DNA of 63,387 nt from a virus (Duplodnaviria > Caudoviricetes). The stretch covers positions 1-63,387 of IMG/VR virus record IMGVR_UViG_3300037558_002241, one strand, 5' to 3'. Positions 1 to 63,387 of this stretch are shown here, one piece after another. The position numbers and the translations under genes were made by a program. The notes beneath the pieces were generated by a model, which saw only the letters and a program-made list of their open reading frames with translations, did not search any database and was not told the origin of the DNA. The first letter of the stretch is position 1. Each line of letters opens with the position of its first letter.

Positions 1-182
1 AAGGTGGTTGCAGTAATATTGTTGCCACTTACAGCATACGTAGACCCAATTCTGGTAGCTTGAGATGCCGCAGCATCAACACTCAATTGGGTGGAAGTAG
101 TCATGCGATGAATCAAGTCTGCCTTTGCTGGCAGTGCGATTGTGGAACCCACTATCGCTACTGCAAAAAGCACTCTTTTCAT
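1..182 (-). CDS. Partial hypothetical protein with signal-peptide-like N-terminus; runs off the window edge
   Basis: Manual translation from ATG at 182: MKRVLFAVAIVGSTIALPAKADLIHRMTTSTQLSVDAAASQATRIGSTYAVSGNNITATT; TAAATA late-promoter motif on the minus strand at 208-213. Confidence 0.7.
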   Translation of the reverse strand, partial: MKRVLFAVAIVGSTIALPAKADLIHRMTTSTQLSVDAAASQATRIGSTYAVSGNNITATT

Positions 183-249
183 TTTTGATACTCATACATT
201 CTAAGGTTATTTAGTTAGATGCTATATACTGTGGAAGGTTATTATTACA

Positions 250-906
250 ATGCAAATTTTTCTTGACACCGCCGACACTGAAATTATCAATCAACATTTA
301 CCAACAGGTATGATTGATGGAGTGACAACTAACCCTACATTGATGGTGAAGAGTGGAAAATGTCCTGATGATGTTTATGAAGAACTTGTATCAATGGGGT
401 TACAAGATATTAGTATGGAAGTTGGTGGTAATGCTCTAGAAATGCTTGAGGAAGGTAGACGACTTGCTAATAAATTTGGTAGGGCAGCAACAATCAAAGT
501 TCCTTGCACACCAGATGGTCTTTGGGTATGTAAGGAACTTGCTAAGGATTTGATTAGGGTCAACGTTACGTTGATATTCTCCGCAGCACAGGCAATCTTG
601 GCTGCCAAATCTAATGCTACATATGTCTCTCCTTTCATTGGCAGACTCGATGACAACTCGGTTGCTGGATTAGAAGTAGTTCGTTCTATTGCAGAAGTTT
701 ATCGAGTGAAAAATGTAAGGACTAAGATCCTTGCTGCATCTCTTAGGGATGTTTATAAAGTAACCCGTGCTTTCTACAACGGTGCTGATATTGTTACTAT
801 GCCACCTGCGGTATTTGAAAAGATGTACAAGCATGTATTGACTGATGCTGGTCTAGAAATCTTCAATAAAAACTTGGAAGAGATCGCTAATGCAACTCAT
901 TCATGA
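250..906 (+). CDS. talC: Transaldolase (TalC/fructose-6-phosphate aldolase family), cyanophage auxiliary metabolic gene
   Basis: IFLDTAD, GVTTNPTL, IKVPCT, VNVTLIFS, YVSPFIGRLDD, ILAASLR motifs; 218 aa. Confidence 0.95.
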   Translation: MQIFLDTADTEIINQHLPTGMIDGVTTNPTLMVKSGKCPDDVYEELVSMGLQDISMEVGGNALEMLEEGRRLANKFGRAATIKVPCTPDGLWVCKELAKDLIRVNVTLIFSAAQAILAAKSNATYVSPFIGRLDDNSVAGLEVVRSIAEVYRVKNVRTKILAASLRDVYKVTRAFYNGADIVTMPPAVFEKMYKHVLTDAGLEIFNKNLEEIANATHS

Positions 907-1396
907 TGCAGTATCTTCTGACTTGGTGGCGAAATGTATTAGAGAAATTTACGCTCGTCAGAAATTGGATGTATGGGGTTTTAGTAAATGGAAATGGGGG
1001 CAGTCCCTTACTAAGGGAATGCGTAATTATTGTTTATCCACAAGACCATCGGCAGAAGTCATCAATCAGATCAAGGTATCTCTAAACCAATACTTCTGTA
1101 GTCCAATTACAAATGTAAATTATCATGTGTGGTTACCTGGTTCAGGTATCAACTGGCATGATGATGGTGGTAATGATGCAGGAGGAACTTTGTATTTGAA
1201 TACATGGATACCTGAGTTGGGTGGAGTCTTCATGTGGAAAGACAAAGACACTGACGAACTAAAAAGTATTTCTCCTGTAGAGAACATGATGATAGTAAAT
1301 AATAATCACGAAAGACATGCTGTGTCACCCATAATCGGTGGTGAACAAGCACAAGTAAGAATGTCCGTACAAATTTTCTGTAAGAGCAATGACTAA
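890..1396 (+). CDS. 2OG-Fe(II) oxygenase (prolyl-hydroxylase-like)
   Basis: INWHDD (HxD), TLYLNTW..GG, HAVSP, RMSVQIF. Confidence 0.8.
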   Translation: MQLIHDAVSSDLVAKCIREIYARQKLDVWGFSKWKWGQSLTKGMRNYCLSTRPSAEVINQIKVSLNQYFCSPITNVNYHVWLPGSGINWHDDGGNDAGGTLYLNTWIPELGGVFMWKDKDTDELKSISPVENMMIVNNNHERHAVSPIIGGEQAQVRMSVQIFCKSND

Positions 1397-1634
1397 CATT
1401 AGTATTCAATGCCTACAATGTGGTGCTGAACTAAATTACGATGGCAAACCTGTATTCTGTGGTTGTCCTAACGCCGCTTCAATCCGTAGAGATGTAATCA
1501 CTGCTATGGATCTTGATTTGGTTAGGTATATTTCTAAGAAGGAACAAGGTCTGGGGTTTACCCGGCAAGATCTTGAGTTTCAAGAAGAACGCAGACATCG
1601 AAAGGTGAGGAAACTAAAATTTGAAGAGCGTTGA
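1389..1634 (+). CDS. Small hypothetical protein, putative Zn-binding
   Basis: CLQC..CGCPN; basic C-terminus; overlaps both neighbours. Confidence 0.7.
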   Translation: MTNISIQCLQCGAELNYDGKPVFCGCPNAASIRRDVITAMDLDLVRYISKKEQGLGFTRQDLEFQEERRHRKVRKLKFEER

Positions 1635-2175
1635 TTTCTCAGACTCAATACACTACACCAACATCGGCACTGACTGGATCGATACTGGTCTATACCGTAA
1701 ACTAATACTGCAACACAAGTGGAGTAAGAGAAACTATTCCCAAGGACAATACGTATTTGATATAGCACCTAATAATATAAGATACTTTCAACCTTTGTTT
1801 GACATCGTATTCTCTGAGGTTAGGAAGTTATATCCTGCTGCAATAATACCTGACAAGTTTGCATCAAGTTGTTGGGCATATGTATCTAATGAGGAGAGAA
1901 GTGTGAGTGTCTTACACAACCACATCTCAGAAAAAATATCGCGGGACTTATCTACGGTATTCTATATGAAGAAACCTAAAGACTCAGGGGATATTCTTTT
2001 CCTGATCGATGGTAAAAAACACATACATAGTCCGGTAGAGGGCGAACTTTTAGTTTTCCCCGCTACTTATTATCACTCTCCGTTGCCTTCAAATACTAAG
2101 GACTATCGGATCGCGATCAACATCAACGTTATCACTCATAACAAATACAATTGTTTCTTGACAAGTGATGTGTGA
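1621..2175 (+). CDS. Putative 2OG-Fe(II) oxygenase
   Basis: LHNH, STVFY, GELLVFPATYYH, RIAININ. Confidence 0.7.
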   Translation: MKSVDFSDSIHYTNIGTDWIDTGLYRKLILQHKWSKRNYSQGQYVFDIAPNNIRYFQPLFDIVFSEVRKLYPAAIIPDKFASSCWAYVSNEERSVSVLHNHISEKISRDLSTVFYMKKPKDSGDILFLIDGKKHIHSPVEGELLVFPATYYHSPLPSNTKDYRIAININVITHNKYNCFLTSDV

Positions 2176-2186
2176 TCGCATATAAT
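2158..2186 (+). promoter_or_regulatory. Consensus sigma70-type (early) promoter upstream of the glycosylation island
   Basis: TTGACA (2158-2163), 17-bp spacer, TATAAT (2181-2186). Confidence 0.8.
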
Positions 2187-2207
2187 GAACTCGTTACCAT
2201 ACCAACA

Positions 2208-2438
2208 ATGTCTAGAGGCCAGTTTCTCGCCAAGTTCAAAAACGTCACCCACCACCTGGTAGATGCCGTTGAGTCTAAGGTAGATCTAGAGTACGATCAC
2301 CCTTCACTTTACGATCAACTCATCAGTCACTACAAACAAGAATCAGAGTTTGATTTTTACGGAGACAAAGAGAAGGATTATGATGTGGTTATAGATAAAC
2401 TTGAATATGATTTGATGAACACTGGAGTTATGCAGTGA
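2208..2438 (+). CDS. Hypothetical protein
   Basis: ORF track 2172-2438; ATG at 2208 preferred because the promoter covers 2158-2186. Confidence 0.65.
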   Translation: MSRGQFLAKFKNVTHHLVDAVESKVDLEYDHPSLYDQLISHYKQESEFDFYGDKEKDYDVVIDKLEYDLMNTGVMQ

Positions 2439-2794
2439 AAGAAGAACGCCCTTGGGGTTGGTATGAAACTATTGAAAGTGGTGAAGGATACAAAGTAAAA
2501 AAAATTCACGTACATTCAGGGCAACGTTTCTCACTACAGTTCCATAGAAAACGAGAAGAACACTGGGTTATTATTGATGGTACGGGTGTAGTAACACTCG
2601 GAGAACATGAATATCAGGCTAACCCTGGTAGTTTTTTTACCGTAAGTATTGAGCAACGGCATCGTGTCGCAGCGGGTAAGGATGGTCTTACTTTTATTGA
2701 AGTTCAGAGAGGGCAATGTAGTGAGAGAGATATTGTTAGACTAGAGGACGATTACGGTCGTCACGTACCATCTTTCTTGGAAATGTTGACATGA
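2435..2794 (+). CDS. Mannose-6-phosphate isomerase (type II, cupin domain)
   Basis: RPWGWY, SLQFHRKREEHW, IEVQRG, EDIVRLEDDYGR-like motifs. Confidence 0.9.
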   Translation: MKEERPWGWYETIESGEGYKVKKIHVHSGQRFSLQFHRKREEHWVIIDGTGVVTLGEHEYQANPGSFFTVSIEQRHRVAAGKDGLTFIEVQRGQCSERDIVRLEDDYGRHVPSFLEMLT

Positions 2795-3735
2795 CATATA
2801 TGGTAACCGGCGGTGCCGGGTTCATCGGGAGTAATTTTTTACACTTTCTTCGTAGGAAAACTGATGAAGAGATTGTTGTTCTTGATAACTTGACATATGC
2901 TGCTGACCTAAGGTTTATTCCTAGGGGGCAGCAGTTTCAGTTTGAGTGGTGTGACATTACGAATGAAGAGCATGTTCATTTCTTGTTTGAGAAGTATGCT
3001 CCAAGAAAGGTATGGCACTTCGCTGCTGAGAGTCATGTAGATAATAGTATTACCAACTACAGACCATTTTTAGAATCAAACGTTGTTGGTACTATCAATT
3101 TACTCAATGCATCCTTGAACATGGGGATTGAAAAGTTCCATCACATCTCTACTGATGAGGTGTATGGATCCCTTGAGTATGATGATGTAGAACTATTCAA
3201 AGAAGACACTCCATATAATCCTAGCAATCCATACTCTGCAAGTAAAGCAGCGTCAGATCATTATGTAAAGACTTGGCATAACACATATGATTTACCGTAT
3301 TTGATTACTAACTGTAGTAATAACTATGGAAGGCATCAGCATGAAGAGAAACTGATCCCTAAAATTATCAAACGTGCTATGAAGGATCAGAACATTTTCA
3401 TGTATGGTGGTGGTCAACAGATTCGTGACTGGTTGTCTGTGGTAGATCACTGCAAAGCAATCTGGTCTCTAGAAGAATGTGGTATCATCAATGATCAATT
3501 CAATATTGGTGGTGGATGTGAGATGAGAAATATTGATGTCACCAAGATGGTGCTTGATGCTATCGATAAACCCTACGGTCTTATTGGCATTTCAGATCAA
3601 AGACCCGGACAAGACAAACGATATGCCATAGATTATGGTAAAATAACAAAGACTACTGGGTGGGAACCCGCTATTGAATTTGAACTTGGATTGCGAGCAA
3701 CTGTATCATGGTACTTAGAAAGATGGGGAATGTGA
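2791..3735 (+). CDS. rfbB: dTDP-glucose 4,6-dehydratase
   Basis: VTGGAGFIGSNF, LTYAA, HFAAESHVD, HISTDEVYG, PYSASKA, NCSNNYG. Confidence 0.92.
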   Translation: MTYMVTGGAGFIGSNFLHFLRRKTDEEIVVLDNLTYAADLRFIPRGQQFQFEWCDITNEEHVHFLFEKYAPRKVWHFAAESHVDNSITNYRPFLESNVVGTINLLNASLNMGIEKFHHISTDEVYGSLEYDDVELFKEDTPYNPSNPYSASKAASDHYVKTWHNTYDLPYLITNCSNNYGRHQHEEKLIPKIIKRAMKDQNIFMYGGGQQIRDWLSVVDHCKAIWSLEECGIINDQFNIGGGCEMRNIDVTKMVLDAIDKPYGLIGISDQRPGQDKRYAIDYGKITKTTGWEPAIEFELGLRATVSWYLERWGM

Positions 3736-4559
3736 AATCGTTCAACAGTCCAGTCACTCTTTACGGTCCTGGTTTTGTAGGTGGTAGGTATGCTGAGATG
3801 TTTCCTGATACGATAGTACAGGAACGCGATGAATACAAACCACAATCTAAGAAGATCCTTTACATGATCTCTACAGTGGACAATTATAATGTCCATAAAG
3901 ATGTTGGTTTAGATGTTGACACTAACCTTCGTGTGTTATGTGATGTCCTAGAGAACTGTCGCAAAGAAGACATTGAGTTCAACTTTATCTCTTCTTGGTT
4001 TGTCTATGGTAAAGGTGGACCTATCCCTGCGTTTGAGGATTCTTTATGTAATCCTACTGGGTTCTATAGTATCACCAAGAGGTGTGCAGAAGACTTGATC
4101 AAGTCTTTCTGTGAGGTGTATAAGATGAAGTATCGTATCCTTCGTTTGTGTAATGTTTTGGGTGATGATCCTAAAGCATCGAAGCAGAAGAATGCAATCA
4201 TGTGGATGATCAATCAACTCAAAGAGGATAAACCAATCAACCTTTATGATGGTGGTAGTCATCGTCGAGATGTCATGCACGTTGATGATGTGTGTCGTGC
4301 TATCAAAACTGTGATTGATGACGGTGACTTGAATGCCACATATAATATTGGGTCAGGTAGACCTACAACAATCGGTGAGATCGTTGAGATCGCTGCTAAT
4401 TGTACGGGTACTAGATCCCATATAGATAGTATTGAACCACCAAAGTTTCATAAGGATGTCCAGACTCAAGACTTTTATCTAGACACCAGTAAACTACAAT
4501 CGTTAGGTTTCAAACCTACTATGGACACCCTTGAGATGGTTGAATCGTTATGTCTGTGA
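3732..4559 (+). CDS. NAD-dependent epimerase/dehydratase
   Basis: GPGFVG, FISSWFVYG, YSITK, LRLCNVLG, HVDDV; GTG start overlapping the upstream stop preferred. Confidence 0.85.
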   Translation: MKSFNSPVTLYGPGFVGGRYAEMFPDTIVQERDEYKPQSKKILYMISTVDNYNVHKDVGLDVDTNLRVLCDVLENCRKEDIEFNFISSWFVYGKGGPIPAFEDSLCNPTGFYSITKRCAEDLIKSFCEVYKMKYRILRLCNVLGDDPKASKQKNAIMWMINQLKEDKPINLYDGGSHRRDVMHVDDVCRAIKTVIDDGDLNATYNIGSGRPTTIGEIVEIAANCTGTRSHIDSIEPPKFHKDVQTQDFYLDTSKLQSLGFKPTMDTLEMVESLCL

Positions 4560-5854
4560 AGAGTAAGGTTGAAGATTTTGTTGCTTCGCTAGAGGCAGAT
4601 GGAGAAGAACTATTCCCCTTCATGGCAAACAAGGGGTGGAAACCTGGTGACAATGTGTATTACTCTGGTCCCTATTGGGATGAGAAGGAACCTGTTGCTG
4701 CTATCACCACCATGCTACAGGGTAAGTGGTTGCCTGCTGGTGAGGAAGTCAATAAATTTGAACGTGCATTCTCCAAACAGTTTGGGTTTGACCACTCTGT
4801 GATGGTGAACAGTGGATCATCTGCCAACCTGGTGATGATTGCTGCACTCAAAAAGTATTTTGATTGGCATGATGGAGATGAGATTATCGTCTGCACTTGT
4901 GGTTTCCCCACCACTATCAATCCCATCATCCAGAACGGACTCAAACCAGTCTTTGTTGATATCAACTACGATGATCTCAACTGGGATCTTGATCAACTAG
5001 AGAGTAAGATTACTCCTAGAACAGTGGCGCTTTTTTCGTCTCCTGTTCTGGGAAACCCCTATGACTTCGATAAGTTCATTGAGATTGTCAATAGGAATAA
5101 CTTGCGGTACGTCGCTGACAACTGTGACTCGCTCGGTTCCAAGTGGCGTGGTGAGTTGCTTACCAAACATGCCGTCGCAGCGTCTTGTTCGTTCTATCCA
5201 GCGCACCATATCAGCACGATTGAAGGCGGGATGGTTTCCTCCAACATTGAGCAGATCGTTCAGATCGCCAGGTCCTTTGCCTGGTGGGGGAGAGGTTGTT
5301 ATTGTGTAGGATCCCAGAATAAATTGCCCAACGGTGTCTGTGGTGCTCGGTTCGATAGATGGTTGGAAGGGTACGATCAAGATGTCGATCATAAGTACGT
5401 CTTTGGCGTTCAGGGATACAACCTCAAGCCTGCCGACCTGCAAGGGTCTATTGGGTTGGTACAGTTGACTAAGCAAGACGATATACATCGCATCCGTCGT
5501 AGCAACAAAGCTAGACTTCATGAGATCTTCAGTCAAATTCCTGGTGCTCGGGTTATTGAAGAGAAAGAGCATGCAGAGACCAGTTGGTTTGGTGTTCCTA
5601 TTGTATGTGGAGAATATAAACACCGCCTTGTAAAATATTTAGAAGACAATAAAGTCCAAACAAGAAACTATTTTGCTGGTAATATTCTAATGCATCCTGC
5701 ATATAGACATATTGAACCTGCAAGTAACTATCCAAATGCATGTAAGGTGTTGGATAATGTATTTTTTGTAGGATGTAGTCCCGTTATTACTGAACCCATG
5801 CTAGAATATATAGATGAAGTTGTATGCAATTACTGTAGTAAGTACTATCAATGA
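4550..5854 (+). CDS. DegT/DnrJ/EryC1/StrS PLP enzyme, RfbH/DdhC-like (4-keto-6-deoxysugar 3-dehydrase type)
   Basis: VNSGSSANL, DNCDSLG, SFYPAHH (His in place of the aminotransferase Lys), WGRGCYC, GYNLK. Confidence 0.85.
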   Translation: MSVKSKVEDFVASLEADGEELFPFMANKGWKPGDNVYYSGPYWDEKEPVAAITTMLQGKWLPAGEEVNKFERAFSKQFGFDHSVMVNSGSSANLVMIAALKKYFDWHDGDEIIVCTCGFPTTINPIIQNGLKPVFVDINYDDLNWDLDQLESKITPRTVALFSSPVLGNPYDFDKFIEIVNRNNLRYVADNCDSLGSKWRGELLTKHAVAASCSFYPAHHISTIEGGMVSSNIEQIVQIARSFAWWGRGCYCVGSQNKLPNGVCGARFDRWLEGYDQDVDHKYVFGVQGYNLKPADLQGSIGLVQLTKQDDIHRIRRSNKARLHEIFSQIPGARVIEEKEHAETSWFGVPIVCGEYKHRLVKYLEDNKVQTRNYFAGNILMHPAYRHIEPASNYPNACKVLDNVFFVGCSPVITEPMLEYIDEVVCNYCSKYYQ

Positions 5855-6942
5855 AAACAGCATTAGTATTGGGTGCCGGTGGTTTCATCGGCAGTCACAT
5901 GGTCAAACGTCTCAAGTCTGAAGGATATTGGGTTCGTGGTGTAGACCTCAAGGTTCCTGACTTCTCAGATTCAGCAGCGGATGAATTCATCCAAGGTGAT
6001 CTGCGAAGATATTCTATTGTCGAACGTGTGATTCAGTACAAAGGTAAACAGGGTAACTTTTATAACTCTGTTCCTTACCAGCACATTGGCACCTTTGATG
6101 AGATCTATCAGTTTGCTGCCGACATGGGTGGTGCTGGTTACATCTTCACGGGTGAGCATGATGCAGACATCATGCATAACTCTGCAAGCATCAACTTGAA
6201 CTTGCTACAGGCAGTCCACAAATTCAATGAGACCTTTGATGGTCGTAATAAAGAGTGGACAGAAGCAAATCGTCCTAAGAAAGATCAACCCACAAAGATC
6301 TTTTACAGTTCTTCTGCCTGCATGTATCCAGAACATAACCAACTTGATCCTGATAACCCTGACTGCCGTGAAGAATCCGCATACCCAGCAGCACCAGACT
6401 CCGAATACGGATGGGAAAAACTCTTCAGTGAGCGGCTCTATCTTAGTTTCGCAAGGAATCATGGCATCCCTGTTTGTATTGCTAGGTATCACAATATCTT
6501 TGGTCCCGAAGGTACCTGGTACGGTGGAAAAGAGAAAGCTCCCGCTGCCATCTGTCGAAAGGTTGCCTATGCTAATCCCGGAGCAAGAATCGAAGTCTGG
6601 GGGGATGGATTACAAACTAGGTCTTTCCTATACATCGATGAATGCATCGAAGCAACTCGACGTTTGATGCAGTCAGACTTCCAGGGACCTGTCAACATTG
6701 GTTCTGAAGAGATGGTAACTATCAACCAACTGGTAGATACTGCTGCCAAGGTTGCCAACAAAGAAATTGGTAAGAAGCACGTAGACGTTCCTCATACTGG
6801 TGTACGTGGTCGCAACTCTAACAATGATCTCATCCGAGAAAAACTTGGATGGGATTATAATCAAACTCTAGAGGAAGGTATGAGGAAAACATATAACTGG
6901 ATCATGCTTCAAATTGCCACGGATTTTACTAACGACAAATGA
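5851..6942 (+). CDS. NAD-dependent epimerase, GDP-mannose 3,5-epimerase-like
   Basis: GAGGFIG, QFAADMGGAG, YSSSACMYP, YGWEKLFSE, GGKEKAPAAICRK, GVRGRNSNN. Confidence 0.85.
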   Translation: MKTALVLGAGGFIGSHMVKRLKSEGYWVRGVDLKVPDFSDSAADEFIQGDLRRYSIVERVIQYKGKQGNFYNSVPYQHIGTFDEIYQFAADMGGAGYIFTGEHDADIMHNSASINLNLLQAVHKFNETFDGRNKEWTEANRPKKDQPTKIFYSSSACMYPEHNQLDPDNPDCREESAYPAAPDSEYGWEKLFSERLYLSFARNHGIPVCIARYHNIFGPEGTWYGGKEKAPAAICRKVAYANPGARIEVWGDGLQTRSFLYIDECIEATRRLMQSDFQGPVNIGSEEMVTINQLVDTAAKVANKEIGKKHVDVPHTGVRGRNSNNDLIREKLGWDYNQTLEEGMRKTYNWIMLQIATDFTNDK

Positions 6943-7595
6943 ACACAACTTATAACTATGAACGGGATGCTCTGAAGAATCCTTTCACTGGGCATACTAA
7001 AGTTTTTGAAAATTTCTCTCAGGCATACCAGGATTTATTTGTCCTGACTATGCTGAAAGGAAAGAAGAATGGTAAGTATGTGGAGGTGGGTGCTAACCAT
7101 CCCCAATCTTTGAGCAATACTTTTCTACTTGAGACAGTATTTGGTTGGCGTGGTTTCTCTGTAGAAATTGAGCGTTCAATGTGTGAGGTTTTCAACGGAG
7201 ACCTGGCACGGCAGAACCATTGTTATGAAGCAGATGCAACTACGTTTGATTACTCCGAGGCAATTGCTAAAGAGAAGTGGCAGGGTCGTGTTGATTACTT
7301 CTCTGTTGACTGTGAACCTCCTGAGGTGACGTTCAAGGCACTCAAAGCATTCCCCCATGATAAATTCCGTGCCAGCGTCATCACCTTTGAACATGACTCT
7401 TACAAGGACGGTGACACCATTCGTGATCATTCACGTCAGTTCTTAGAGGATCTTGGTTACCAACTGGTATGTGCCAGTGTTTGTAATGGTGACAATGCTT
7501 ATGAAGATTGGTGGGTTGATCCTACTGTTGTAAAGGAGTCAGTTTGGAAACCTTTTGAGTGTGTTGATAAAGAAGCACGAACTATTTTGTTATGA
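6939..7595 (+). CDS. FkbM-like SAM-dependent methyltransferase
   Basis: SQAYQD, YVEVGA, SNTFLLE..GWRG..VE, DYFSVD, ITFEHD, YEDWWV. Confidence 0.75.
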   Translation: MNTTYNYERDALKNPFTGHTKVFENFSQAYQDLFVLTMLKGKKNGKYVEVGANHPQSLSNTFLLETVFGWRGFSVEIERSMCEVFNGDLARQNHCYEADATTFDYSEAIAKEKWQGRVDYFSVDCEPPEVTFKALKAFPHDKFRASVITFEHDSYKDGDTIRDHSRQFLEDLGYQLVCASVCNGDNAYEDWWVDPTVVKESVWKPFECVDKEARTILL

Positions 7596-8365: not shown

Positions 8366-8867
8366 ACTTAGTGATGGGATAGTGACGCAGATTGAAAGTC
8401 TGTGTAAAAAACTTCCTTATTATTATTTTGAAGACTGTGCCTACGGAAATGATCATCACCCTCTAAGGACGGTGATGAACCCTTATTTTAGTTCTACTTT
8501 GTTGGGTGTAGATGGAAGCATTTCACCATTCTTTCGCGAGTTCCCTTGGAACGCTATCGGTCGAGAGATTGGTATGCCTAACAACCCAATGATGAGGTCT
8601 CATATGACCTTACAATATCCACGATCAGAGTCGTTTGGTATTCCCCACAACTCACATATAGATGATGACCGTCCACACATTGTAGGGTTGTATTATCCTA
8701 ATGATGCTGACGGAGATACTTTCTTTTTTGATGGAGACCAAAATGTCATACATAGAGAACCTCCGGAGCGGGGTAAGATGGTTACTTTTGACGGAAAGCA
8801 ATATCATTCCAGTTCTTCTCCAATTACTGGTGTTAGATTTACTTTGAATATCAATTATTGTCCATGA
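8325..8867 (+). CDS. 2OG-Fe(II) oxygenase
   Basis: HID, LYYPNDADGDTFFF, FDGKQYHSSSSP, RFTLNIN. Confidence 0.75.
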   Translation: MISKENSSFLTRHRLSDGIVTQIESLCKKLPYYYFEDCAYGNDHHPLRTVMNPYFSSTLLGVDGSISPFFREFPWNAIGREIGMPNNPMMRSHMTLQYPRSESFGIPHNSHIDDDRPHIVGLYYPNDADGDTFFFDGDQNVIHREPPERGKMVTFDGKQYHSSSSPITGVRFTLNINYCP

Positions 8868-19704: not shown

Positions 19705-19832
19705 ACCACATTGTTCGTCGCCTCACCGAGACTAAACAGCGACAATAAAAAACAGTCTCTAATACCTGTTACTGAGGGTGTAACAGGAATATCTTACCAG
19801 TGTTCCCCGCACTTATATCTAACCCTTTTCAA
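19705..19832 (+). ncRNA. PhotoRC-II-like structured RNA leader of psbA
   Basis: GTCGC/GCGAC stem, GAGACT/AGTCTC pseudoknot pairing, CCTGTTAC/GTAACAGG hairpin with GAGGG loop, AGTG/CACT hairpin with CCCC loop; directly 5' of a cyanophage psbA; boundaries approximate. Confidence 0.75.
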
Positions 19833-20912
19833 ATGTCCGCTACTCTTTCAAATCAAAGATCTCAATCCGCATGGAATGAGTTCTGTGACTGGGTAACAAG
19901 CACCAACAATCGTCTTTATGTCGGTTGGTTCGGAGTCCTCATGATTCCAACCCTGCTTGCCGCTACAGTCTGTTTCATCGTTGCTTTCGTAGCAGCACCT
20001 CCCGTCGATATCGACGGCATCCGCGAACCAGTTGCTGGTTCACTCATGTATGGAAACAACATCATCTCTGGTGCTGTTGTCCCCAGTTCAAACGCAATCG
20101 GTCTCCACTTCTATCCCATCTGGGAAGCAGCATCACTCGACGAGTGGCTGTATAACGGTGGTCCTTTCCAATTGGTAGTCTTCCACTTCCTGATCGGCAT
20201 CTATGCCTATATGGGACGTGAGTGGGAACTTTCTTACCGCTTAGGTATGCGTCCATGGATCTGTGTTGCCTACTCGGCACCAGTCGCTGCTGCGAGTGCA
20301 GTATTCCTCGTATATCCTTTCGGTCAAGGTTCTTTCTCTGACGCGATGCCCTTGGGTATCAGTGGTACATTCAACTACATGCTTGTCTTCCAAGCAGAGC
20401 ACAACATCTTGATGCACCCCTTCCACATGCTCGGCGTAGCAGGTGTCTTCGGTGGTTCATTGTTCAGTGCAATGCACGGTTCTTTGGTTACATCTTCACT
20501 CGTCCGTGAGACGACTGAGCAAGAGTCACAGAACTATGGTTACAAGTTTGGTCAAGAAGAAGAGACCTATAACATCGTTGCAGCCCATGGCTACTTCGGT
20601 CGTTTGATCTTCCAATACGCTTCATTCAACAACTCCCGTTCCTTGCACTTCTTCCTTGCTGCATGGCCTGTTGTCGGCATCTGGTTCACCGCCCTTGGCG
20701 TGTCCACGATGGCGTTCAACCTGAACGGTTTCAACTTCAACCAGTCCATCCTTGATGGTCAGGGTCGTGTGTTGAACACCTGGGCAGACGTTCTGAACCG
20801 TGCAGGTTTGGGTATGGAAGTAATGCACGAGCGTAATGCTCACAACTTCCCACTCGACCTTGCTGCTGCTGAGTCAACTCCTGTTGCTCTTACCGCACCT
20901 ACCGTTGGTTGA
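19833..20912 (+). CDS. psbA: Photosystem II D1 protein
   Basis: [36 protein letters not shown]; 359 aa from ATG 19833; no intron. Confidence 0.99.
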
Positions 20913-31424: not shown

Positions 31425-32179
31425 TGACTGCACGTCGCAAGAAGATCATGTCATCTGTAGGTGCTGGAATGACAGCGAAACAGATGCGAAGAAAGAAACC
31501 CATCAACTCAGAGGCGATGGTGCCTATTGAAGCAATCACTGACAATCAAAAAATTGTCTTTGATGCATACAATGAGGGTAAACATTTGTTTCTCTATGGG
31601 TGTGCTGGCACTGGCAAAACATTCATTACTCTTTATCTTGCTCTGCGTGAGGTATTAGATCCATTCACACCTTACAATAAGGTGGTGCTGGTTCGCTCAC
31701 TAGTTTCTACACGTGAGATTGGTTTCCTACCAGGAGATCATGAAGATAAGTCTGCTCTTTACCAAATTCCTTATAAGAATATGGTAAAGTATATGTTTGA
31801 ACTACCCACTGACAATGAATTTGAAATGCTTTGGGGAAACCTGAAGACTCAAGAGTCAGTTACTTTCTGGTCCACTAGTTTCATCCGAGGTACTACACTT
31901 GATGATTCTATTATTATTGTGGACGAATCTCAGAACTTGAACTTCCACGAACTTGATAGTATTATTACTAGGGTTGGTGAGAACTGTAAGATTATGTTCT
32001 GTGGTGACGTAGCACAAACTGATTTGGTCAAGACTAACGAGAAGAATGGGATCTTAGATTTCATGAAGATCGTTGAGCGTATGCCTGAATTCGTACTAAC
32101 TGAATTTGGTATCGAAGACATCGTTCGTTCTGGACTGGTCAAGTCTTATCTCACTAATAAAATTGAACTTGGTATGTGA
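31424..32179 (+). CDS. phoH: PhoH-like ATPase
   Basis: GCAGTGKT, IGFLPG, FIRG.TL, DESQN, GD..QTDL, DIVRSGLV. Confidence 0.95.
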   Translation: MTARRKKIMSSVGAGMTAKQMRRKKPINSEAMVPIEAITDNQKIVFDAYNEGKHLFLYGCAGTGKTFITLYLALREVLDPFTPYNKVVLVRSLVSTREIGFLPGDHEDKSALYQIPYKNMVKYMFELPTDNEFEMLWGNLKTQESVTFWSTSFIRGTTLDDSIIIVDESQNLNFHELDSIITRVGENCKIMFCGDVAQTDLVKTNEKNGILDFMKIVERMPEFVLTEFGIEDIVRSGLVKSYLTNKIELGM

Positions 32180-32859
32180 TGTTTCAACATATAGAATGTG
32201 ATCTTCCTGCACTTGCCAGGAAAAACATTGAAGGAATTAGATTCTACACAGTCAATGACAGACCGATGGTGTCCATCACCTCGGTCACTTCTCACTACAA
32301 TAAAGAAGTCTTTGTCAAGTGGAGAAAGAGAGTTGGTGCAGCCGAAGCAAACCGCATCACTAAACGTGCTACTAGTCGGGGTACAAAAACTCATTCTTTG
32401 ATCGAGACATTTCTCTTGAACAAAGAGGTTGAGTTCACAGAACCTGGTCCTAAGATGCTGTTTCAGCAGGCAAAACAGACCCTACAAAACATAAATAATA
32501 TATACGCTCTAGAAAAGAGCTTGTATAGTGAAGAACTTGGGGTTGCTGGAACAGTAGACTGTATCGCTGAATACACTGGCGAGAACGGCGAACCTGAGTT
32601 AGCAATCATTGATTTCAAGACAGCAGAGAAACCCAAACCACGGGATTGGATTGAAAACTATTTCGTACAAGCGTCTGCTTATGCCTGTATGTTCTATGAA
32701 CGTACTGGTATCCCTGTAAAAAAACTTGTCATCATTATGACATGTGCGAACGGGGAGGTGCAAGTGTACGAAGAGTATGATAAAATGACTTATATGAAAC
32801 TACTCATCCAATACATTCAAAAATTTGTCGAAGAAAAAATCAATGAGTTCCAAAACTGA
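32176..32859 (+). CDS. PD-(D/E)XK exonuclease (RecB/Cas4-like)
   Basis: SITSV, RGT..H, AGTVDCIA, IIDFKT, YFVQ..AY. Confidence 0.85.
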   Translation: MMFQHIECDLPALARKNIEGIRFYTVNDRPMVSITSVTSHYNKEVFVKWRKRVGAAEANRITKRATSRGTKTHSLIETFLLNKEVEFTEPGPKMLFQQAKQTLQNINNIYALEKSLYSEELGVAGTVDCIAEYTGENGEPELAIIDFKTAEKPKPRDWIENYFVQASAYACMFYERTGIPVKKLVIIMTCANGEVQVYEEYDKMTYMKLLIQYIQKFVEEKINEFQN

Positions 32860-35719: not shown

Positions 35720-36625
35720 ATGTCTTTCGCAGACCTCAAGAAACAATCTAAACTTGGCAGTTTGACTTCCAAACTGACCAAAGAGATTGAAAAAATGAAT
35801 ACTACTGGTTCCAATAATGCTGATGACCGTCTTTGGAAACTGGAAGTTGATAAAGCAGGCAACGGTTATGCTGTAATCCGTTTCCTCCCTGCACCTAATG
35901 GAGAAGAACTTCCTTGGGCAAAGGTGTGGTCCCATGCTTTCCAAGGTCCTGGAGGTTGGTACATTGAGAACTCTCTGACTACCATGGGCAAGAAAGATCC
36001 TGTCTCTGAATACAATCGACTGCTGTGGAACAGTGGCACTGACTCAGACAAGGATCTTGCTCGTAAGCAGAAGCGTAAACTCAGTTACACTTCTAACATC
36101 TACGTTGTAAAGGACCCTGCTAATCCTCACAACGAAGGCAAAGTCTTCCTATACAAGTTCGGTAAGAAGATCTTTGACAAACTTTCTGCTGCTATGCAAC
36201 CTGAGTTTGAGGACGAAGAAGCAATTGATCCCTTTGACTTCTGGGGTGGTGCTCACTTCAAACTGAAAGCAAAGAACGTTGCAGGTTATCGTAACTACGA
36301 TTCCTCTGAGTTTGCTGCACCTTCTCCTCTTCTAGATGACGATGATGCATTGGAAGCACTGTGGAAAAAGCAATATTCTCTGCAAGAGTTTACTAATGCA
36401 GATCAGTTCAAGCCTTATGAAGAACTTGAAACTCGTCTTCACGCAGTTCTGAACAATGCACGTCCTCCACGTGTGAATCCAGAAACTTTTGATGAGGAGC
36501 AGGAGATTACTACAAGTAAGAATCCTGAACCAGAGTTGAAAGCAAAAGTAGCCGATGTACAATCTTCGACTACAGATGATAGTGATGATGCTCTATCATA
36601 TTTCCAACGTCTTGCTGATGCTTGA
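35720..36625 (+). CDS. gp32: Single-stranded DNA-binding protein gp32
   Basis: DDRLWK..DKAGNGYAVIRFLPA, WYIENSLTT, YKFGKKIFDK, acidic tail DALSYFQRLA. Confidence 0.96.
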   Translation: MSFADLKKQSKLGSLTSKLTKEIEKMNTTGSNNADDRLWKLEVDKAGNGYAVIRFLPAPNGEELPWAKVWSHAFQGPGGWYIENSLTTMGKKDPVSEYNRLLWNSGTDSDKDLARKQKRKLSYTSNIYVVKDPANPHNEGKVFLYKFGKKIFDKLSAAMQPEFEDEEAIDPFDFWGGAHFKLKAKNVAGYRNYDSSEFAAPSPLLDDDDALEALWKKQYSLQEFTNADQFKPYEELETRLHAVLNNARPPRVNPETFDEEQEITTSKNPEPELKAKVADVQSSTTDDSDDALSYFQRLADA

Positions 36626-40131: not shown

Positions 40132-40557
40132 TTAGTCCTTATAAAATCCTTTCCGATATACCTTAGATGGACTAATATCAATTTCAATAGCGCCGAGGTC
40201 TCTGACAAATTGCTCTGAATCAAGTGCTACTGCTTTGTCCCACTCTTCCATTGAAATTTGTAAAAATGGACTATTTACATATGATTTTAGGTATTTATGA
40301 TAACCTCGCAAACGTGTAAAATCACTGCCTGAATCGATATATTGTATCAATGCTCTTCGATTTGCTGGGAGGTGATAATGTAGGTTGATTCCATAGAATA
40401 TGTTTTTACCTTCTCTTGCTACCACATAACATAGGGGATTCCTATCGTAGTATGGTAATTTTAGGGCAGTTTTTGCTGTATAGTGGAATAATGAAATAGA
40501 TCCTGGAGCAGGTTCACCTACCAATGTAGATTTTGGAAATTCATCTCTATATTCCAA
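40132..40557 (-). CDS. DNA end protector gp2-like
   Basis: F.Y.AK..LPYYD.NPL, FYGINLHY, H.YL...V, EW; T4-like synteny. Confidence 0.75.
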   Translation of the reverse strand: MEYRDEFPKSTLVGEPAPGSISLFHYTAKTALKLPYYDRNPLCYVVAREGKNIFYGINLHYHLPANRRALIQYIDSGSDFTRLRGYHKYLKSYVNSPFLQISMEEWDKAVALDSEQFVRDLGAIEIDISPSKVYRKGFYKD

Positions 40558-40978
40558 GTTCTTTCTCCGTCATTACTTGAAATTCCCACTTTCGATCAGA
40601 ACAAAACTCTTCTGCTGCTTTCCATTTTGCTAAATTTTTAGCATATTCTAGAGATTCGTAAATATGTTTTCTAGTCCTCTTTTTTGTAGTTGGAGGAGCA
40701 CACTGTTTGGCAGGTTTTACTTCAATAACCTTCTCTACTACTTGACCATGTACATTCTTGTATTTGATGTAGAAGTCAGGAAAGTATCTACGAACTTTTC
40801 TTGTAGTTGGATCATAATATGGAATATGAAATTCTTCAGATGCCCATTGTAGTATTGATTCTTTCCGGTCACAATATACCATAAACTTACGCTCCCACAA
40901 TGAGCGATAGATTATGTTTCTAGAGTCCCCTTTGTATTTTTTGGGGTTTGATGGTCTATAGCGACCTTGATAGGACAT
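40547..40978 (-). CDS. gp4: Head completion protein gp4 (TnsA-like nuclease fold)
   Basis: YQGRY.P.NP.KY.GD, IYRSLWE, WASEE, RYFPDF, IEVKP, N.AKW.AA; TAAATA on the minus strand at 41001-41006. Confidence 0.9.
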   Translation of the reverse strand: MSYQGRYRPSNPKKYKGDSRNIIYRSLWERKFMVYCDRKESILQWASEEFHIPYYDPTTRKVRRYFPDFYIKYKNVHGQVVEKVIEVKPAKQCAPPTTKKRTRKHIYESLEYAKNLAKWKAAEEFCSDRKWEFQVMTEKELGI

Positions 40979-41013
40979 ACATAGTATAGCGACCATAGTG
41001 TATTTAGATAGGG

Positions 41014-41919
41014 ATGGCCAAACCCAACGCCTTTGAAAGAGCAAACATAAGCACGGACAAACTTTATGATGGCAGTTCTCAAAATGGAGCGTTGAATCCT
41101 GCTTTCAATAACCAATACGATGTTTCTATCAATTTTGGAGATGCTGAAGGTGGAAATTTGTTGAATTACATCAAAAAATATGATAAGAATGGACGAGGTG
41201 AACCTGGTCAATTCCTATCGTTATTTTGTTCTGAGGCACTGCTACCTGGATCTCAAATTCAAACTTCTAAAGTTGATGGACTCCGCCAAGGATTGTCTCA
41301 GGATTATGCAATATATCGTAGATATCCAGATATCAACTTGACTTGGTATTCAACGCAAGATTATTTTACTAATGATATTTTCAATGCTTGGATGGAGTTT
41401 ATCTCTCCTTTAGATATTGGTTCATTTGGAAAACGTAAAGCAGATAGGGAGACTCGAAAAAACTCAAAAAATGCTGGTCGTAGACTGCAATACCCAAATA
41501 GTTATAAGTGTGGTATGCAAATTACTGCATTATCTAGAGATGGTGGTAGTAATTTTATTACTTATCATATTGAAAGAGCATTTCCAACCAGTATTATCGC
41601 TGCTCCTCTTGCATATGGTAAGGCAGAACTAATCAAGACTACAGTATCATTCAAATACGAAAATTACTTTACTGAAAGGAGTGGGGTTGGAACTGTAAAA
41701 GATACTGCTATTATACTGTCAGAGAAAGAAAGACAAGCAGCAACAGAAGCAGCAGCAAAAGCGGAAAGGGAAGCTAATCAAGACTTTGCTGATGATACTG
41801 GCAAAACTCTTGCAGAGGCAGCAATTCTTAGAGGTGGAGGATCTCTTCCAGAAGTAGTTATTGATGGGGGTACTGGCAATAGGAGTGGTAACACACTATC
41901 TAACAGCACCACTGCGTGA
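41014..41919 (+). CDS. Tail tube/baseplate tube-initiator protein (gp54/gp19-like)
   Basis: LFCSEALLPG, R.Y..I.LT.Y, F.AWM, AFP.SI...L.YG, VSF.Y. Confidence 0.7.
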   Translation: MAKPNAFERANISTDKLYDGSSQNGALNPAFNNQYDVSINFGDAEGGNLLNYIKKYDKNGRGEPGQFLSLFCSEALLPGSQIQTSKVDGLRQGLSQDYAIYRRYPDINLTWYSTQDYFTNDIFNAWMEFISPLDIGSFGKRKADRETRKNSKNAGRRLQYPNSYKCGMQITALSRDGGSNFITYHIERAFPTSIIAAPLAYGKAELIKTTVSFKYENYFTERSGVGTVKDTAIILSEKERQAATEAAAKAEREANQDFADDTGKTLAEAAILRGGGSLPEVVIDGGTGNRSGNTLSNSTTA

Positions 41920-44623: not shown

Positions 44624-44624
44624 T

Positions 44625-60395: not shown

Positions 60396-60396
60396 A

Positions 60397-60735: not shown

Positions 60736-60736
60736 G

Positions 60737-62809
60737 ATGCCAAGATTATTGTCTGGTCGAGTAGGTGTTACCTCCTACGCAGGACTTTCTACAGAACGTC
60801 AACAAACTCCTGGGTTTCCATCCTTCCTTGGAGTGGATGAAGCGGAACCTAACCTCGGTTTGCCATCGGACAATAACTATGTCCTCTATGGTACTGTTAC
60901 TGGCGAAAGATATTGGGCAGAACCGAGTGGATCTCCTTCTGGTACTGCCTCAGGATTGACAGTATCTGATGAGAGTATTACTCCAACAGGATATGCTGGA
61001 TCTATTACTAGATTCAACTTTATTGGTAATGGTGTCAATGTTGAACAAACCAAACAAACTTTTGGTGGCATTGAGGTTGGTGTTGCCACCGTATTTGTAG
61101 AGAAAACAACTCTTAGTATTGCAGACGCTGACGAATTTGTACGTGCAACTGGTATTACCACTATCAAGGTGGGTGCTGGTTTATCATTCTTCCCTGAACC
61201 TGGTAGAGCCGGTGTTGTAACTATATTCTCAGCGGCAGATGCTACATCTACCATGCAGAATGCTGATGGTACTGAAGCATTTGGAAATGTTTCTACCTTC
61301 CGCATTGGTGCTGGTCTTACTGTAAGTCAGGTAACGGTTGGTATTGCTTCTATTGGTGTAACAGGAGAGTTTGATAATGTAAATGCTGCTGGTATTGTTA
61401 CTGCTGGTGTACAGTTCAAGGGTAACTTAGCAGGTACGGCAGTAACTGCCACTAACTTATATGGTAATCTTACTGGTAATGTAGTTGGTGATGTAACTGG
61501 TAACGTAACTGGTGATGTGAATGCTGGTTTTGTTACTGCCACAAAATCTATTGATGGTAACCTCAATTCTAGTGGTGTCTCTACGATTTCCCAGTTGATG
61601 GGAACAACCCTGATGATCACTGGTATTGTTACCACAAACTCAGGTTTCGTAGCACCTGCTGGATCATTTGGATTTGATGGTAACCTGAATGCACCTGGTG
61701 TTTCTACAGCAACATCTCTGAATAGTACTAACTTGGTTGTTAGTGGTGTCACTACACATAATGGGAATGTTGAAATTAGTGGTAGTAATAAACTAATCTT
61801 TGGTAGTAATGATTTAGATATCTATTTTGATGGATCTGATAGCCTTATTGATGCTGGTACTAATGAGGATCTCTACATAAAAGGCAAGAGTGTTTTTATA
61901 CATGCAAATGGCACTGAAACTGCTGCTAGTTTCTTACAGAATGCAGGTGTAGACCTTTATTATAATGCCGTTTCTAGACTCAGAACAACCAATACTGGTG
62001 CTCAAGTCACTGGTGATATAGAGGCATCCGAGTTCAAAGGTCCTCTAACTGGTAATGTTACTGGAACAATCAATGCTGCTGGTGTCTCTACAGTAACCAA
62101 TCTGCTTGAGATTCGTAGTAGTGATGGCACTCCCGCTCGTATTGATTACTACTGTGAGGTAAACAACGCTCATTATACTAGAGTACAGGCAGCACCACAC
62201 TCTGAGTATAGTGGTAACGTAACTGCTGTCCTCCCCACCAAGAATGGTGACATTATTGTTGGTGATACCCAAGGTGCTATTAGTCAGAATGTCAATACCG
62301 TTGGTATTGTTACTGCATCTTTTTTCCATGGTGATGGTTCTAATCTAACCAATATTGCTGGTAACACAGTTACCATAACAGAAACAAATACCACAAATGC
62401 TCAGCATTTTATGTGTTTTGTTGACTCAAATACTGGGTTAGAAACTATTAGAACCGATACCAGTCTTCAATACAATCCAGGCACAAATCTTCTAACATCA
62501 GTAAACTTTAGCGGTACTTTGACCGGTACCTCCACTGGTTTGGCTGGCACCCCCAGTATTAGCGTTTCTGATATTACCTTGAATGGTAATATGCTGCCAG
62601 ATGCTAATAATACACGTGATCTAGGTGCAATTGGTTCCCGATGGGCAAATGTCTATACCTCTGACATGCACTTTAGCAATGTTGGTTCAGGTGGTAATGA
62701 TGTAGATGGTACAGAGGGTAACTGGACGTTACAAGAAGGTGCTGATAACATCTATATGATCAATAATATCACAGGTAAGAAATATAAGATTGCTCTAACT
62801 GAGGTATGA
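60737..62809 (+). CDS. Tail-fibre protein
   Basis: GN(L/V)TG repeats, GIVTA/GVST repeats, C-terminal DLG..RWANVYTSD..N.VDGT.GNWTLQEG. Confidence 0.75.
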   Translation: MPRLLSGRVGVTSYAGLSTERQQTPGFPSFLGVDEAEPNLGLPSDNNYVLYGTVTGERYWAEPSGSPSGTASGLTVSDESITPTGYAGSITRFNFIGNGVNVEQTKQTFGGIEVGVATVFVEKTTLSIADADEFVRATGITTIKVGAGLSFFPEPGRAGVVTIFSAADATSTMQNADGTEAFGNVSTFRIGAGLTVSQVTVGIASIGVTGEFDNVNAAGIVTAGVQFKGNLAGTAVTATNLYGNLTGNVVGDVTGNVTGDVNAGFVTATKSIDGNLNSSGVSTISQLMGTTLMITGIVTTNSGFVAPAGSFGFDGNLNAPGVSTATSLNSTNLVVSGVTTHNGNVEISGSNKLIFGSNDLDIYFDGSDSLIDAGTNEDLYIKGKSVFIHANGTETAASFLQNAGVDLYYNAVSRLRTTNTGAQVTGDIEASEFKGPLTGNVTGTINAAGVSTVTNLLEIRSSDGTPARIDYYCEVNNAHYTRVQAAPHSEYSGNVTAVLPTKNGDIIVGDTQGAISQNVNTVGIVTASFFHGDGSNLTNIAGNTVTITETNTTNAQHFMCFVDSNTGLETIRTDTSLQYNPGTNLLTSVNFSGTLTGTSTGLAGTPSISVSDITLNGNMLPDANNTRDLGAIGSRWANVYTSDMHFSNVGSGGNDVDGTEGNWTLQEGADNIYMINNITGKKYKIALTEV

Positions 62810-62814
62810 ATTGA

Positions 62815-63387
62815 ATGACTGTAAAGTATTATGATGGTATAATTCCTAACACTCTGGCAGATAATATCTACGAATATTGTCAGAATATATCTTGGTATCA
62901 AGAGTGGATTGGATATAATAAAATGCATTTGTCTGAGTATATACCAGCGCAAGATGGTAAAACATCCAGTCGTCACTTTTTGGACAAAGATTTAGGACCA
63001 ATGGGTATATTGAACCTGCTAAGGTTTTCAATGTACAGACATCCATTTGCATGGGGGGAAGAATCCTTACAGGCAAGGCATTCTATGATCTATGATTTAT
63101 GGACTATAATCAACGATAAAGTATTTGATGGTGGTGCTGAAGTAGAAGGATTGTCTGAAAGTATTGCTGGTTTAGCTGGTTACCATAAGTTCTTCAAGGA
63201 TGGCACACAATTCCGTGATAAGTACAATATTCCTCTCGAACAGAAGCAGATTGGGTGGAAGGCATATTTCAATGCACGATGTGCTGAGTCAATTACAGGA
63301 TCTCCTATTGGTAACCGCGTTGGGCAAATACATAAAGATTCCAGTGCAGATGTTGATCCCAAGTCTGATAGATACTACACAGTATTA
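62815..63387 (+). CDS. Partial 2OG-Fe(II) oxygenase-like protein; runs off the window edge
   Basis: Frame open from ATG 62815 to the end; AYFNA..IHKD..YTVL resembles the HxD region of 2OG oxygenases. Confidence 0.6.
   Translation, partial: MTVKYYDGIIPNTLADNIYEYCQNISWYQEWIGYNKMHLSEYIPAQDGKTSSRHFLDKDLGPMGILNLLRFSMYRHPFAWGEESLQARHSMIYDLWTIINDKVFDGGAEVEGLSESIAGLAGYHKFFKDGTQFRDKYNIPLEQKQIGWKAYFNARCAESITGSPIGNRVGQIHKDSSADVDPKSDRYYTVL

Follow-up and report, generated by a model that had tools for sequence, protein, structure and literature searches.

A lineage of T4-like cyanophages without TTAA sites, and a candidate phage-borne restriction endonuclease associated with the loss

The DNA analysed here is a viral stretch of 63,387 bases (IMG/VR record IMGVR_UViG_3300037558_002241; GC content 0.41), which in its full length we call the window, and the property that concerns us is its lack of the tetranucleotide TTAA. 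We relate this lack to a candidate nuclease of the PD-(D/E)XK superfamily, labeled 'T4-like GC 685' in GenBank, that is encoded by relatives of the window. The window is a fragment of a T4-like cyanomyovirus (Kyanoviridae), put by the CheckV estimate in IMG/VR at 33% of a genome, and it combines T4-type genes (gp32, gp59, gp4, gp53, baseplate, tail-tube, and tail-fibre genes) with cyanophage auxiliary genes (psbA, psbD, phoH, talC, plastocyanin, and thyX).

A first-pass annotation of this DNA had claimed, from reading by eye, that TTAA is purged from it, and counting confirms the claim. TTAA is its own reverse complement and occurs on neither strand of the window, against 478 occurrences expected from base composition and 351 and 226 under Markov models of first and second order; of all 256 tetramers it falls furthest below expectation. 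Shuffling synonymous codons inside each of the 78 called open reading frames (ORFs; 93% of the window), which preserves both protein sequence and codon usage, yielded 262.5±11.1 TTAA and, over 200 shuffles, never fewer than 237. The 4,225 noncoding bases, where about 36 would be expected, hold none either.

The codon context of the gap was also as first described, with NTC or TTG written ahead of AA-type codons. Of 425 leucine codons followed by a codon beginning with A, none is TTA, against 200 of 1,037 in other contexts, and NTT was chosen instead of NTC in 0 of 323 cases before AA and in 1,974 of 2,950 elsewhere. None of the 29 TAA stops is preceded by T, and where the last codon ends in T (15 genes) the stop is TGA (13) or TAG (2), so that the stop-codon pattern claimed earlier holds in the aggregate, the level at which it was checked. 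AATT, TATA, and ATAT are all close to expectation. Away from a following A or AA, TTA and NTT are both in free use, so neither codon bias nor dinucleotide bias accounts for the gap.

These controls, together with two further comparisons, leave next to no credence for codon usage, dinucleotide bias, mutational bias, or a sequencing or assembly artefact as the source of the pattern. We found no support for such an origin, although TA-containing words are mildly low across many genomes, and it is already refuted by the zero that stands against both the shuffled and the second-order counts, by the context-bound use of TTA and NTT, and by the normal AATT, TATA, and ATAT. Contigs from the same sample also disagree with one another (observed/expected TTAA, 0/27 in L082 versus 31/35 in L027, and 0/33 in L084 versus 53/63 in L132), and normal TTAA in same-sample contigs rules out a library artefact. 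In addition, phage S-ShM2, cultured and sequenced independently, has the identical gap, which is thus not peculiar to one assembly.

Four genes of the window served as markers or came into view as possible nucleases:

40547..41044, minus strand: gp4 head-completion gene, the marker that located the TTAA-free clade; Pfam TnsA-like_N match
19800..20912, plus strand: psbA (photosystem II D1), the marker for the likely host and for further TTAA-free contigs
35720..36625, plus strand: gp32 single-strand DNA-binding protein gene, used in the first marker scan, which revealed a partly depleted sister group
32176..32859, plus strand: PD-(D/E)XK-like 'exonuclease' gene adjoining phoH; weak PDDEXK_1 match (E 8e-4)

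Despite its TnsA-like_N match, gp4 was rejected as a nuclease: it is a universal T4-type structural gene, with a homologue in 2,577 phage records. The pair of phoH and an annotated exonuclease also occurs in the TTAA-normal phage ACG-2014i, a likeness that is one of annotation. The cellular psbA genes closest to that of the window belong to marine Synechococcus or Cyanobium (93-95% identity).

We then followed TTAA through relatives of the window, using G- and L-numbers for the IMG/VR contigs and loci that were gathered by marker or nuclease-profile scans. In ACG-2014i, the best database match, whose conserved genes are about 85% identical in nucleotide sequence, TTAA is normal (274 versus 285 expected). 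Among 80 IMG/VR loci found by the gp4 scan, 6 have no TTAA (gp4 80-93% identical), 9 are partly depleted (0.16-0.54 of expectation), and the others lie at about 0.7-1.1; in the gp32 scan, about 10 of the closest loci are partly depleted. In the gp4 tree, 7 TTAA-free rows fall on one side of a branch with Shimodaira-Hasegawa-like approximate likelihood ratio test (SH-aLRT) support of 82, and 9 partly depleted rows on one side of another (SH-aLRT 84). The relative G001, which CheckV rates 100% complete (192,351 bp), contains 0 TTAA against 693 expected under the second-order model and 1,414 from base composition. Synteny links the window to positions 107,760-174,942 of G001 and to 1-61,078 of another contig, G411.

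How old the loss is can be judged from the distance between the window and G001: across 66 orthologues their proteins are 74% identical, and of 4,597 four-fold sites 47% differ. As both have 0 TTAA despite this divergence, the zero has been kept through a long separation. At positions where relatives have TTAA, the window mostly has TCAA, the synonymous change NTT to NTC. Most cyanomyoviruses, Syn5-like podoviruses, and cyanobacterial genomes are not depleted. Extending the count beyond the window, as the first-pass annotation had proposed, therefore upheld the zero across the clade, including the complete G001, and showed in turn that it is neither general to cyanomyoviruses nor shared by the host. 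The absence of TTAA is complete, old, and lineage specific.

One partly depleted relative, G002, has 114 TTAA against 574 expected, spread evenly except in its first 15.6 kb. That segment (1-15,600) holds many small ORFs, a nuclease gene, and two methylase genes and has 0 TTAA, whereas the rest has about 4.6 per 5 kb; either a TTAA-free phage may have donated it recently, or the constraint on it may be stronger.

The lead to the nuclease came from this gene order in G002 and not from domain scans of G001, where 30 ORFs without homologues in TTAA-normal phages contained no recognisable nuclease or methylase (all searched against Pfam, ten against PHROGs). In G002, an ORF of 183 amino acids (aa) precedes two PF01555 methyltransferase genes and is translationally coupled to them; its sole homologue among the compared genomes is a 176-aa ORF of G001 (187,741-188,271; 51% identity). 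G001 has no PF01555 or C5 methyltransferase, and G002 has the two of PF01555 type. A search for nuclease or methyltransferase genes that track TTAA loss thus arrived at the 'T4-like GC 685' family. The record of phage S-BM3 calls its member 'restriction endonuclease', one homologue bears the Joint Genome Institute name 'restriction endonuclease Mrr', and there are 136 metagenomic relatives.

The G001 copy has no curated-family match in Pfam, nor is there one for the nuclease in NCBIfam, and its membership of the superfamily rests on motif and fold. An alignment of 38 sequences has K45, G46, F49, E50, D73, E82-x-K84, Q98, Q99, R101, and N145-Q-H-G-G invariant, giving a core KGxxFE...D...ExK accompanied by WQQIR and NQHGG motifs. 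E50, D73, and E82-x-K84 make up the PD-(D/E)XK catalytic motif, in which an acidic residue of helix 1 is followed by D and (D/E)xK on successive strands, and these residues are kept in the copies of S-ShM2, S-BM3, S-SSM4, P-SSM7, ACG-2014f, G409, and G410. The AlphaFold model of the G001 protein is a confident one (predicted local distance difference test [pLDDT] 93.0, predicted template modeling score 0.83) and has the alpha-beta-beta-beta-alpha-beta core fold of the superfamily when compared with solved structures. Its best Protein Data Bank matches are I-Ssp6803I, NhoI, EcoRV, Eco15I, and PvuII (Foldseek E 5e-4 to 2e-2; template modeling [TM] score 0.3-0.53), and all 5 matches with E of at most 0.001 are PD-(D/E)XK endonucleases (I-Ssp6803I, NhoI, and EcoRV; TM 0.39-0.53). 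A homodimer is predicted with a score of 0.62, against 0.12 for the best of 3 controls. Among the solved structures used in calibration, 20 of 30 pairs and 1 of 23 single chains came up to that mark; contacts agree between runs to at least 84%, with a partner pLDDT of at least 86. On this model, the 176-aa protein is very probably a PD-(D/E)XK nuclease resembling restriction endonucleases.

The window does not include the nuclease gene. Its place in G411 is about 14 kb past the end of the region homologous to the window, and the genome from which the window derives presumably carries it as well.

A scan of IMG/VR with the nuclease profile returned 37 loci. At most of them the gene sits 3-54 bp from a PF01555 methyltransferase gene whose product is 47-80% identical to that of G002 and has adenine-specific enzymes as its best NCBIfam matches. 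A nuclease gene beside a methyltransferase gene, the layout of type II restriction-modification systems, is thus found at most IMG/VR loci as well as in G002 and P-SSM7. TTAA stands at or below 0.45 of base-composition expectation (range 0 to 0.45) in all 37 nuclease loci, and at a median of 0.73 in 134 comparison loci that had been classed as TTAA-normal beforehand, relatedness among loci being ignored. G006 (100% complete) and G007 (88%), both TTAA-normal, have no match to the nuclease profile. Beside an adjacent methyltransferase gene, TTAA is lowered without being lost. Where an intact adjacent methyltransferase is missing, TTAA is absent or nearly so (expectations from base composition):

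G001: no adjacent methyltransferase; TTAA 0 versus 1,414 expected
G411: no adjacent methyltransferase; TTAA 0 versus 457 expected
L486: no adjacent methyltransferase; TTAA 0 versus 72 expected
G409: no adjacent methyltransferase; TTAA 2 versus 519 expected
G410: no adjacent methyltransferase; TTAA 0 versus 204 expected
G412 (loci L487 and L488): only a shortened, divergent methyltransferase; TTAA 0 versus 152 expected

The shortened methyltransferase of G412 may be a decaying copy. At two further loci, L510 and L516, the nuclease gene lies at the contig edge, so that a neighbouring methylase gene may lie beyond it.

Cultured phages carry the family too:

S-ShM2: clade B nuclease (SShM2_059) after a helicase gene; no PF01555 in the genome; TTAA 0 in 179,563 bp
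S-BM3: nuclease of the same clade as that of S-ShM2; one methyltransferase, distant; TTAA 39 versus 260 expected
P-SSM7: divergent clade A nuclease; two adjacent methyltransferases (genes 054-056); TTAA normal, 571/589
S-SSM4 (NC_020875.1): clade A nuclease; one methyltransferase, distant; TTAA normal; TCGA 0/139, TTTAAA 0/27
ACG-2014f: clade A nuclease; one methyltransferase, distant; TTAA normal; nothing obviously absent in 60 kb sampled

S-ShM2 would be expected to contain 586 TTAA under the second-order model and 1,347 from base composition. The S-BM3 nuclease reading frame is open upstream of its annotated start. Species with only clade A nucleases (P-SSM7, S-SSM4, and ACG-2014f) have TTAA at 0.92-0.97 of expectation, and those with no homologue (S-T4, Sf-CH8, P-TIM40, ACG-2014i, DSL-LC02, and AG-345-D19, the first three of them complete genomes) at 0.82-1.05; Fisher's exact test on these cultured species, 2 versus 9, gives p = 0.018. 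Clade A departs from the rest in the WQQIR and NQHGG motifs, which makes a different specificity plausible, although this is an assumption. In 80 kb sampled, S-SSM4 also lacks CCGG (0/49), and its nuclease has no adjacent methylase; it may be a second instance in which the nuclease stands alone and a site is missing, for a different word (TCGA).

To ask how often the association arose, we compared the backgrounds in which it occurs. In a 28-gene tree (8,643 columns), G004, with 1 TTAA against 217 expected, groups with the TTAA-normal P-TIM40, and placing G004 in a clade with G001 is rejected by the approximately unbiased (AU) test (p = 0.0005), as is placing it with G001 and G002 (p ~1e-58). 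G004 and G409 are S-ShM2-like (73% and 66% amino-acid identity). None of the 104 ORFs of G004, which is 41% complete, is common specifically to it and G001. G410 (loci L555/L556; GC 0.47; 31% complete) stands further apart, with only 2-3 of 43 ORFs matching T4-like cyanophages; it encodes a class II ribonucleotide reductase, two adjacent tryptophan halogenases, a CobS-like/AAA_5 ATPase, a GNAT protein, and an M23 peptidase. GATC is also low in this contig (75/175). A lone nuclease together with the absence of TTAA is found in at least three unrelated backgrounds: the window clade, S-ShM2, and this 40-kb contig that is not T4-like.

This recurrence bears on the possibility that the cassette of nuclease and methyltransferase is real and has a target other than TTAA, common ancestry and recombination within a few related phage groups being its only link to the loss. 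Most nuclease loci do probably come from few cyanomyovirus groups, carriers of the methyltransferase are still depleted, the specificity of the enzyme is itself a deduction, and the cassette-bearing, TTAA-free first 15.6 kb of G002 suggests mosaic ancestry. Yet the same pairing appears in three lineages without shared ancestry, TTAA is wholly lacking in just those cases where no intact methyltransferase was found alongside, and a methyltransferase of adenine-specific type suits a site that contains A. We regard a target other than TTAA as quite improbable.

On the host side, no depletion of TTAA was seen in 73 cyanobacterial loci, marine Synechococcus included, the lowest ratio being 0.76; Synechococcus DNA has about 7-38 TTAA per 21 kb, or one per roughly 0.5-3 kb. 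Among 81 Syn5-like podovirus loci, the 25 lowest in TTAA are all near second-order expectation, and AGCT, GGCC, GCGC, and CCGG are undepleted in those 25 too. The nuclease profile, which recovers G002, found nothing in 401 Cyanobiaceae genomes. Likewise, none of the 401 has a match over cut-off to the restriction-enzyme families RE_HpaII and RE_ScaI (one weak RE_ScaI match lies below it), a search that included no model of a TTAA-specific family. PF01555 methyltransferases of any specificity pass the cut-off in 67 of the 401, and none was found in the five Synechococcus genomes nearest by psbA. Avoidance is not shared by phages of one host, for isolates of WH8102 and WH7803 span the range from zero to normal: on WH8102, S-ShM2 has 0 TTAA and Sf-CH8 has 656 versus 798 expected, and on WH7803, the ratio to expectation is 0.15 for S-BM3 and 0.90 for S-T4.

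A ubiquitous host defence that targets TTAA, such as an MseI-like restriction enzyme, had been offered by the first-pass annotation as one of two causes. It, or some other sequence-specific defence common among the hosts, would drive the avoidance from outside in phages moving from strain to strain, the nuclease link then being incidental or the cassettes having been taken up for their methyltransferase. There is precedent in phage K, which is without GATC, and in Bacillus phages without GGCC. A host origin also fits the graded depletion of the sister clade and of G002 (uniform past its first 15.6 kb), the PF01555 methyltransferases of the 67 Cyanobiaceae genomes, the purging of other palindromes from phages without this nuclease (P-TIM40 and, for CCGG, S-T4), and the one or two residual TTAA of G004 and G409, which suit an external cutter that is not always lethal. 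The idea is weakened by the complete disagreement between phages of the same strain, by the undepleted podoviruses and hosts, and by the lack of PF01555 in the five nearest Synechococcus genomes, and it leaves the retention of a lone nuclease in three unrelated TTAA-free lineages unexplained. A marine methylome study (PMC8919816) reports TTAA methylation in Chloroflexi and has Cyanobacteria among the genomes without a methylated motif. A host cause remains the main rival, and we consider it unlikely.

The other cause put forward at the outset, a phage-encoded TTAA-specific nuclease against which the phage is protected by its sequence alone, is the one we lean towards, in a modified form: a phage-borne TTAA-specific restriction enzyme, with immunity of the phage itself through either methylation or total loss of the site, is on balance the probable explanation. 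What speaks for it is the depletion of TTAA at all 37 of the 37 loci that carry the family, the zero counts where no intact methyltransferase is found, the three lineages, and the lack of a nuclease match in any of the 401 host-family genomes searched. That the nuclease is active and cuts TTAA, and that it serves to break down host DNA, we infer from sequence, and the gene is not inside the window.

The system may work as follows. The clade very probably encodes a small, homodimeric, type II-like PD-(D/E)XK endonuclease with TTAA as its putative target. Together with an N6-adenine methyltransferase, the enzyme would form a phage-borne restriction-modification cassette under which TTAA is tolerated but reduced. 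In the clade of the window, the methyltransferase is missing or decayed and the nuclease stands alone, so that the phage could survive its own enzyme only through the loss of every TTAA, mostly by synonymous changes from NTT-AAN to NTC-AAN, with selection removing new ones. A plausible order of events would be gain of the cassette, purging of the site under leaky methyl-protection, and loss of the methylase. The enzyme would then cut the DNA of the host and of rival phages while the phage itself is spared, and, at the TTAA density of Synechococcus DNA, the host chromosome would be broken down to fragments a few kilobases long. The use may lie in recycling of host DNA, exclusion of rivals, or both.

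A broader generalisation is possible, and we hold it tentatively: a widespread and hitherto unrecognised family of phage restriction enzymes may let marine cyanophages cut the DNA of the host and of co-infecting rivals at TTAA, several lineages having dropped the methylase to rely on a site-free genome. Gain, purging, loss, and possible re-accumulation would follow one another in a cycle legible in the genomes, and divergent members would explain other gaps, such as that of TCGA in S-SSM4.

Several observations weigh against a TTAA-specific phage enzyme. Its target is deduced only from words that genomes lack, the TM-scores of the fold matches are modest, and the window, at about 33% of a genome, is without the nuclease gene. 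Kinship among loci inflates the count of 37 of 37, and as S-ShM2, G409, and G410 were found through the nuclease search, G001 is the only unbiased genome to combine the nuclease with freedom from TTAA. Phages that bear a methyltransferase are still 2- to 30-fold depleted, which would not be expected under full methyl-protection. Clade A homologues accompany normal TTAA, so another specificity must be assumed for them. The residual sites (1 in G004, 2 in G409) should not be there and are tolerable only if they are assembly variants or if cleavage is incomplete. Finally, P-TIM40 is purged of CCGG and GCGC without a GC685 nuclease, so another purging force exists.

Other words are missing from these genomes as well (counts as observed/expected). 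In P-TIM40 (KP211958.1; 188,632 bp; a Prochlorococcus phage), CCGG stands at 0/108, GCGC at 0/107, GAAC/GTTC at 104/1,241, and GTAC at 136/668. CCGG is low in S-T4 (13/152), G003 (12/78), and S-ShM2 (1/123), GCGC is absent from G002 (0/43), and P-SSM7 has no GCGC, CCGG, or CGCG in 80 kb sampled. AGTACT, the ScaI site, is missing from G001 (0/35) and S-ShM2 (0/46) and present in the window (9/12). The nonpalindromic CAAGG/CCTTG is nearly gone from G004 (2/110) and G409 (0/70), which also lack CCGG (0/57 and 0/50), and its loss hints at type IIS, type III, or bacteriophage exclusion (BREX)-like pressure. RGCY, the CviJI site, is represented by words (AGCT, GGCC, and GGCT/AGCC) that are 3- to 10-fold low in most cyanomyoviruses, among them the window, L001, G001, G002, G004, P-TIM40, Sf-CH8, and S-ShM2, and undepleted in S-T4, DSL-LC02, G003, Syn5-like podoviruses, and marine Synechococcus. 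The gaps in CCGG, GCGC, AGTACT, and RGCY need causes other than the TTAA model.

The window has further features of note. Positions 2435-19682 (about 17 kb) hold sugar-nucleotide and glycosyltransferase genes clustered on one strand, with a mannose-6-P isomerase-like cupin, three NAD-dependent epimerase/dehydratases, a DegT-type aminotransferase, an FkbM-like methyltransferase, several 2OG-Fe(II) (2-oxoglutarate- and iron-dependent) oxygenases, and at least eight glycosyltransferase-like genes (GT17, GT47-like, DUF5672, GT10, GT2, GT11, GT7C, GT25, TOD1/MUCI70-like). The glycosyltransferase cluster is mostly common to G001 and G002 and not to S-T4, Sf-CH8, or P-TIM40, and it may remodel host surface or virion glycans. 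Between 25629 and 34185 lie three radical-SAM genes (25629-26741, 30382-31173, and 33109-34185), and amid them a carbamoyltransferase in three ORFs (28014-29045, 28990-29586, and 29583-30398). ARAGORN found no tRNA genes in the window or in the complete G001 (192,351 bp).

T4-like cyanophages, which are among the most abundant marine viruses, tell their own unmodified DNA from that of the host while recycling the host chromosome, and a cutter of an absent site would, if real, account for this in these lineages. It would also mean that 'missing words' in phage genomes are not automatically the imprint of host restriction systems. The nuclease is a candidate for a new 4-base cutter, and a lone nuclease with an absent site could serve as a simple genomic marker for further phage-borne restriction enzymes. 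The idea is directly testable in culture with S-ShM2 (SShM2_059) on Synechococcus WH8102. A literature search, with supplementary files outside its scope, found no report of TTAA-free cyanophages, of a cyanophage restriction enzyme, or of this nuclease.

Among solved endonucleases, I-Ssp6803I, NhoI, EcoRV, and PvuII share with the candidate the E...D...ExK pattern and the fold, the candidate being a predicted dimer, and differ from it in that identity is 10-16% at a TM of 0.3-0.53, only the core fold being common. NhoI and Eco15I need methylated DNA, a dependence that the adjoining methyltransferase makes unlikely here. The MseI restriction-modification system targets TTAA and has an N6-adenine methyltransferase partner, so that it would match the candidate cassette in both its 4-bp target and its type of methyltransferase, a likeness of description.

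Restriction-site avoidance is known not only from phage K and the Bacillus phages but also as counter-selection of host sites in Anabaena/Nostoc cyanophages. The likeness is that a short palindrome is gone, or nearly gone, from a large genome via synonymous changes. There the host supplies the cutting enzyme, whereas here the pattern tracks a phage gene that has no match in the 401 host-family genomes searched.

The chlorella viruses, which encode restriction-modification systems such as R.CviAII/M.CviAII of PBCV-1, whose enzyme probably degrades host DNA early in infection and spares the viral DNA, resemble the present phages as lytic viruses of a phototroph with a type II enzyme and a methyltransferase, in a cassette laid out as in G002, P-SSM7, and most loci. 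They are protected by methylation; in the window clade, S-ShM2, and the partial G410, no PF01555 was found, and protection would come only from the absence of the site throughout the genome. T4 degrades host DNA with endonucleases II and IV and protects its own with hydroxymethylcytosine. There, too, phage DNA is distinguished so that phage nucleases destroy the host chromosome only, but the mark in T4 is chemical, here it would be a missing word, and the enzyme families are unrelated. Virus-encoded restriction enzymes and host-driven site loss are thus both known, and self-immunity by total loss of the site would be new: if the reading of a phage-borne TTAA enzyme is right, a third route to self-protection beside base modification in T4 and methylation in the chlorella viruses.

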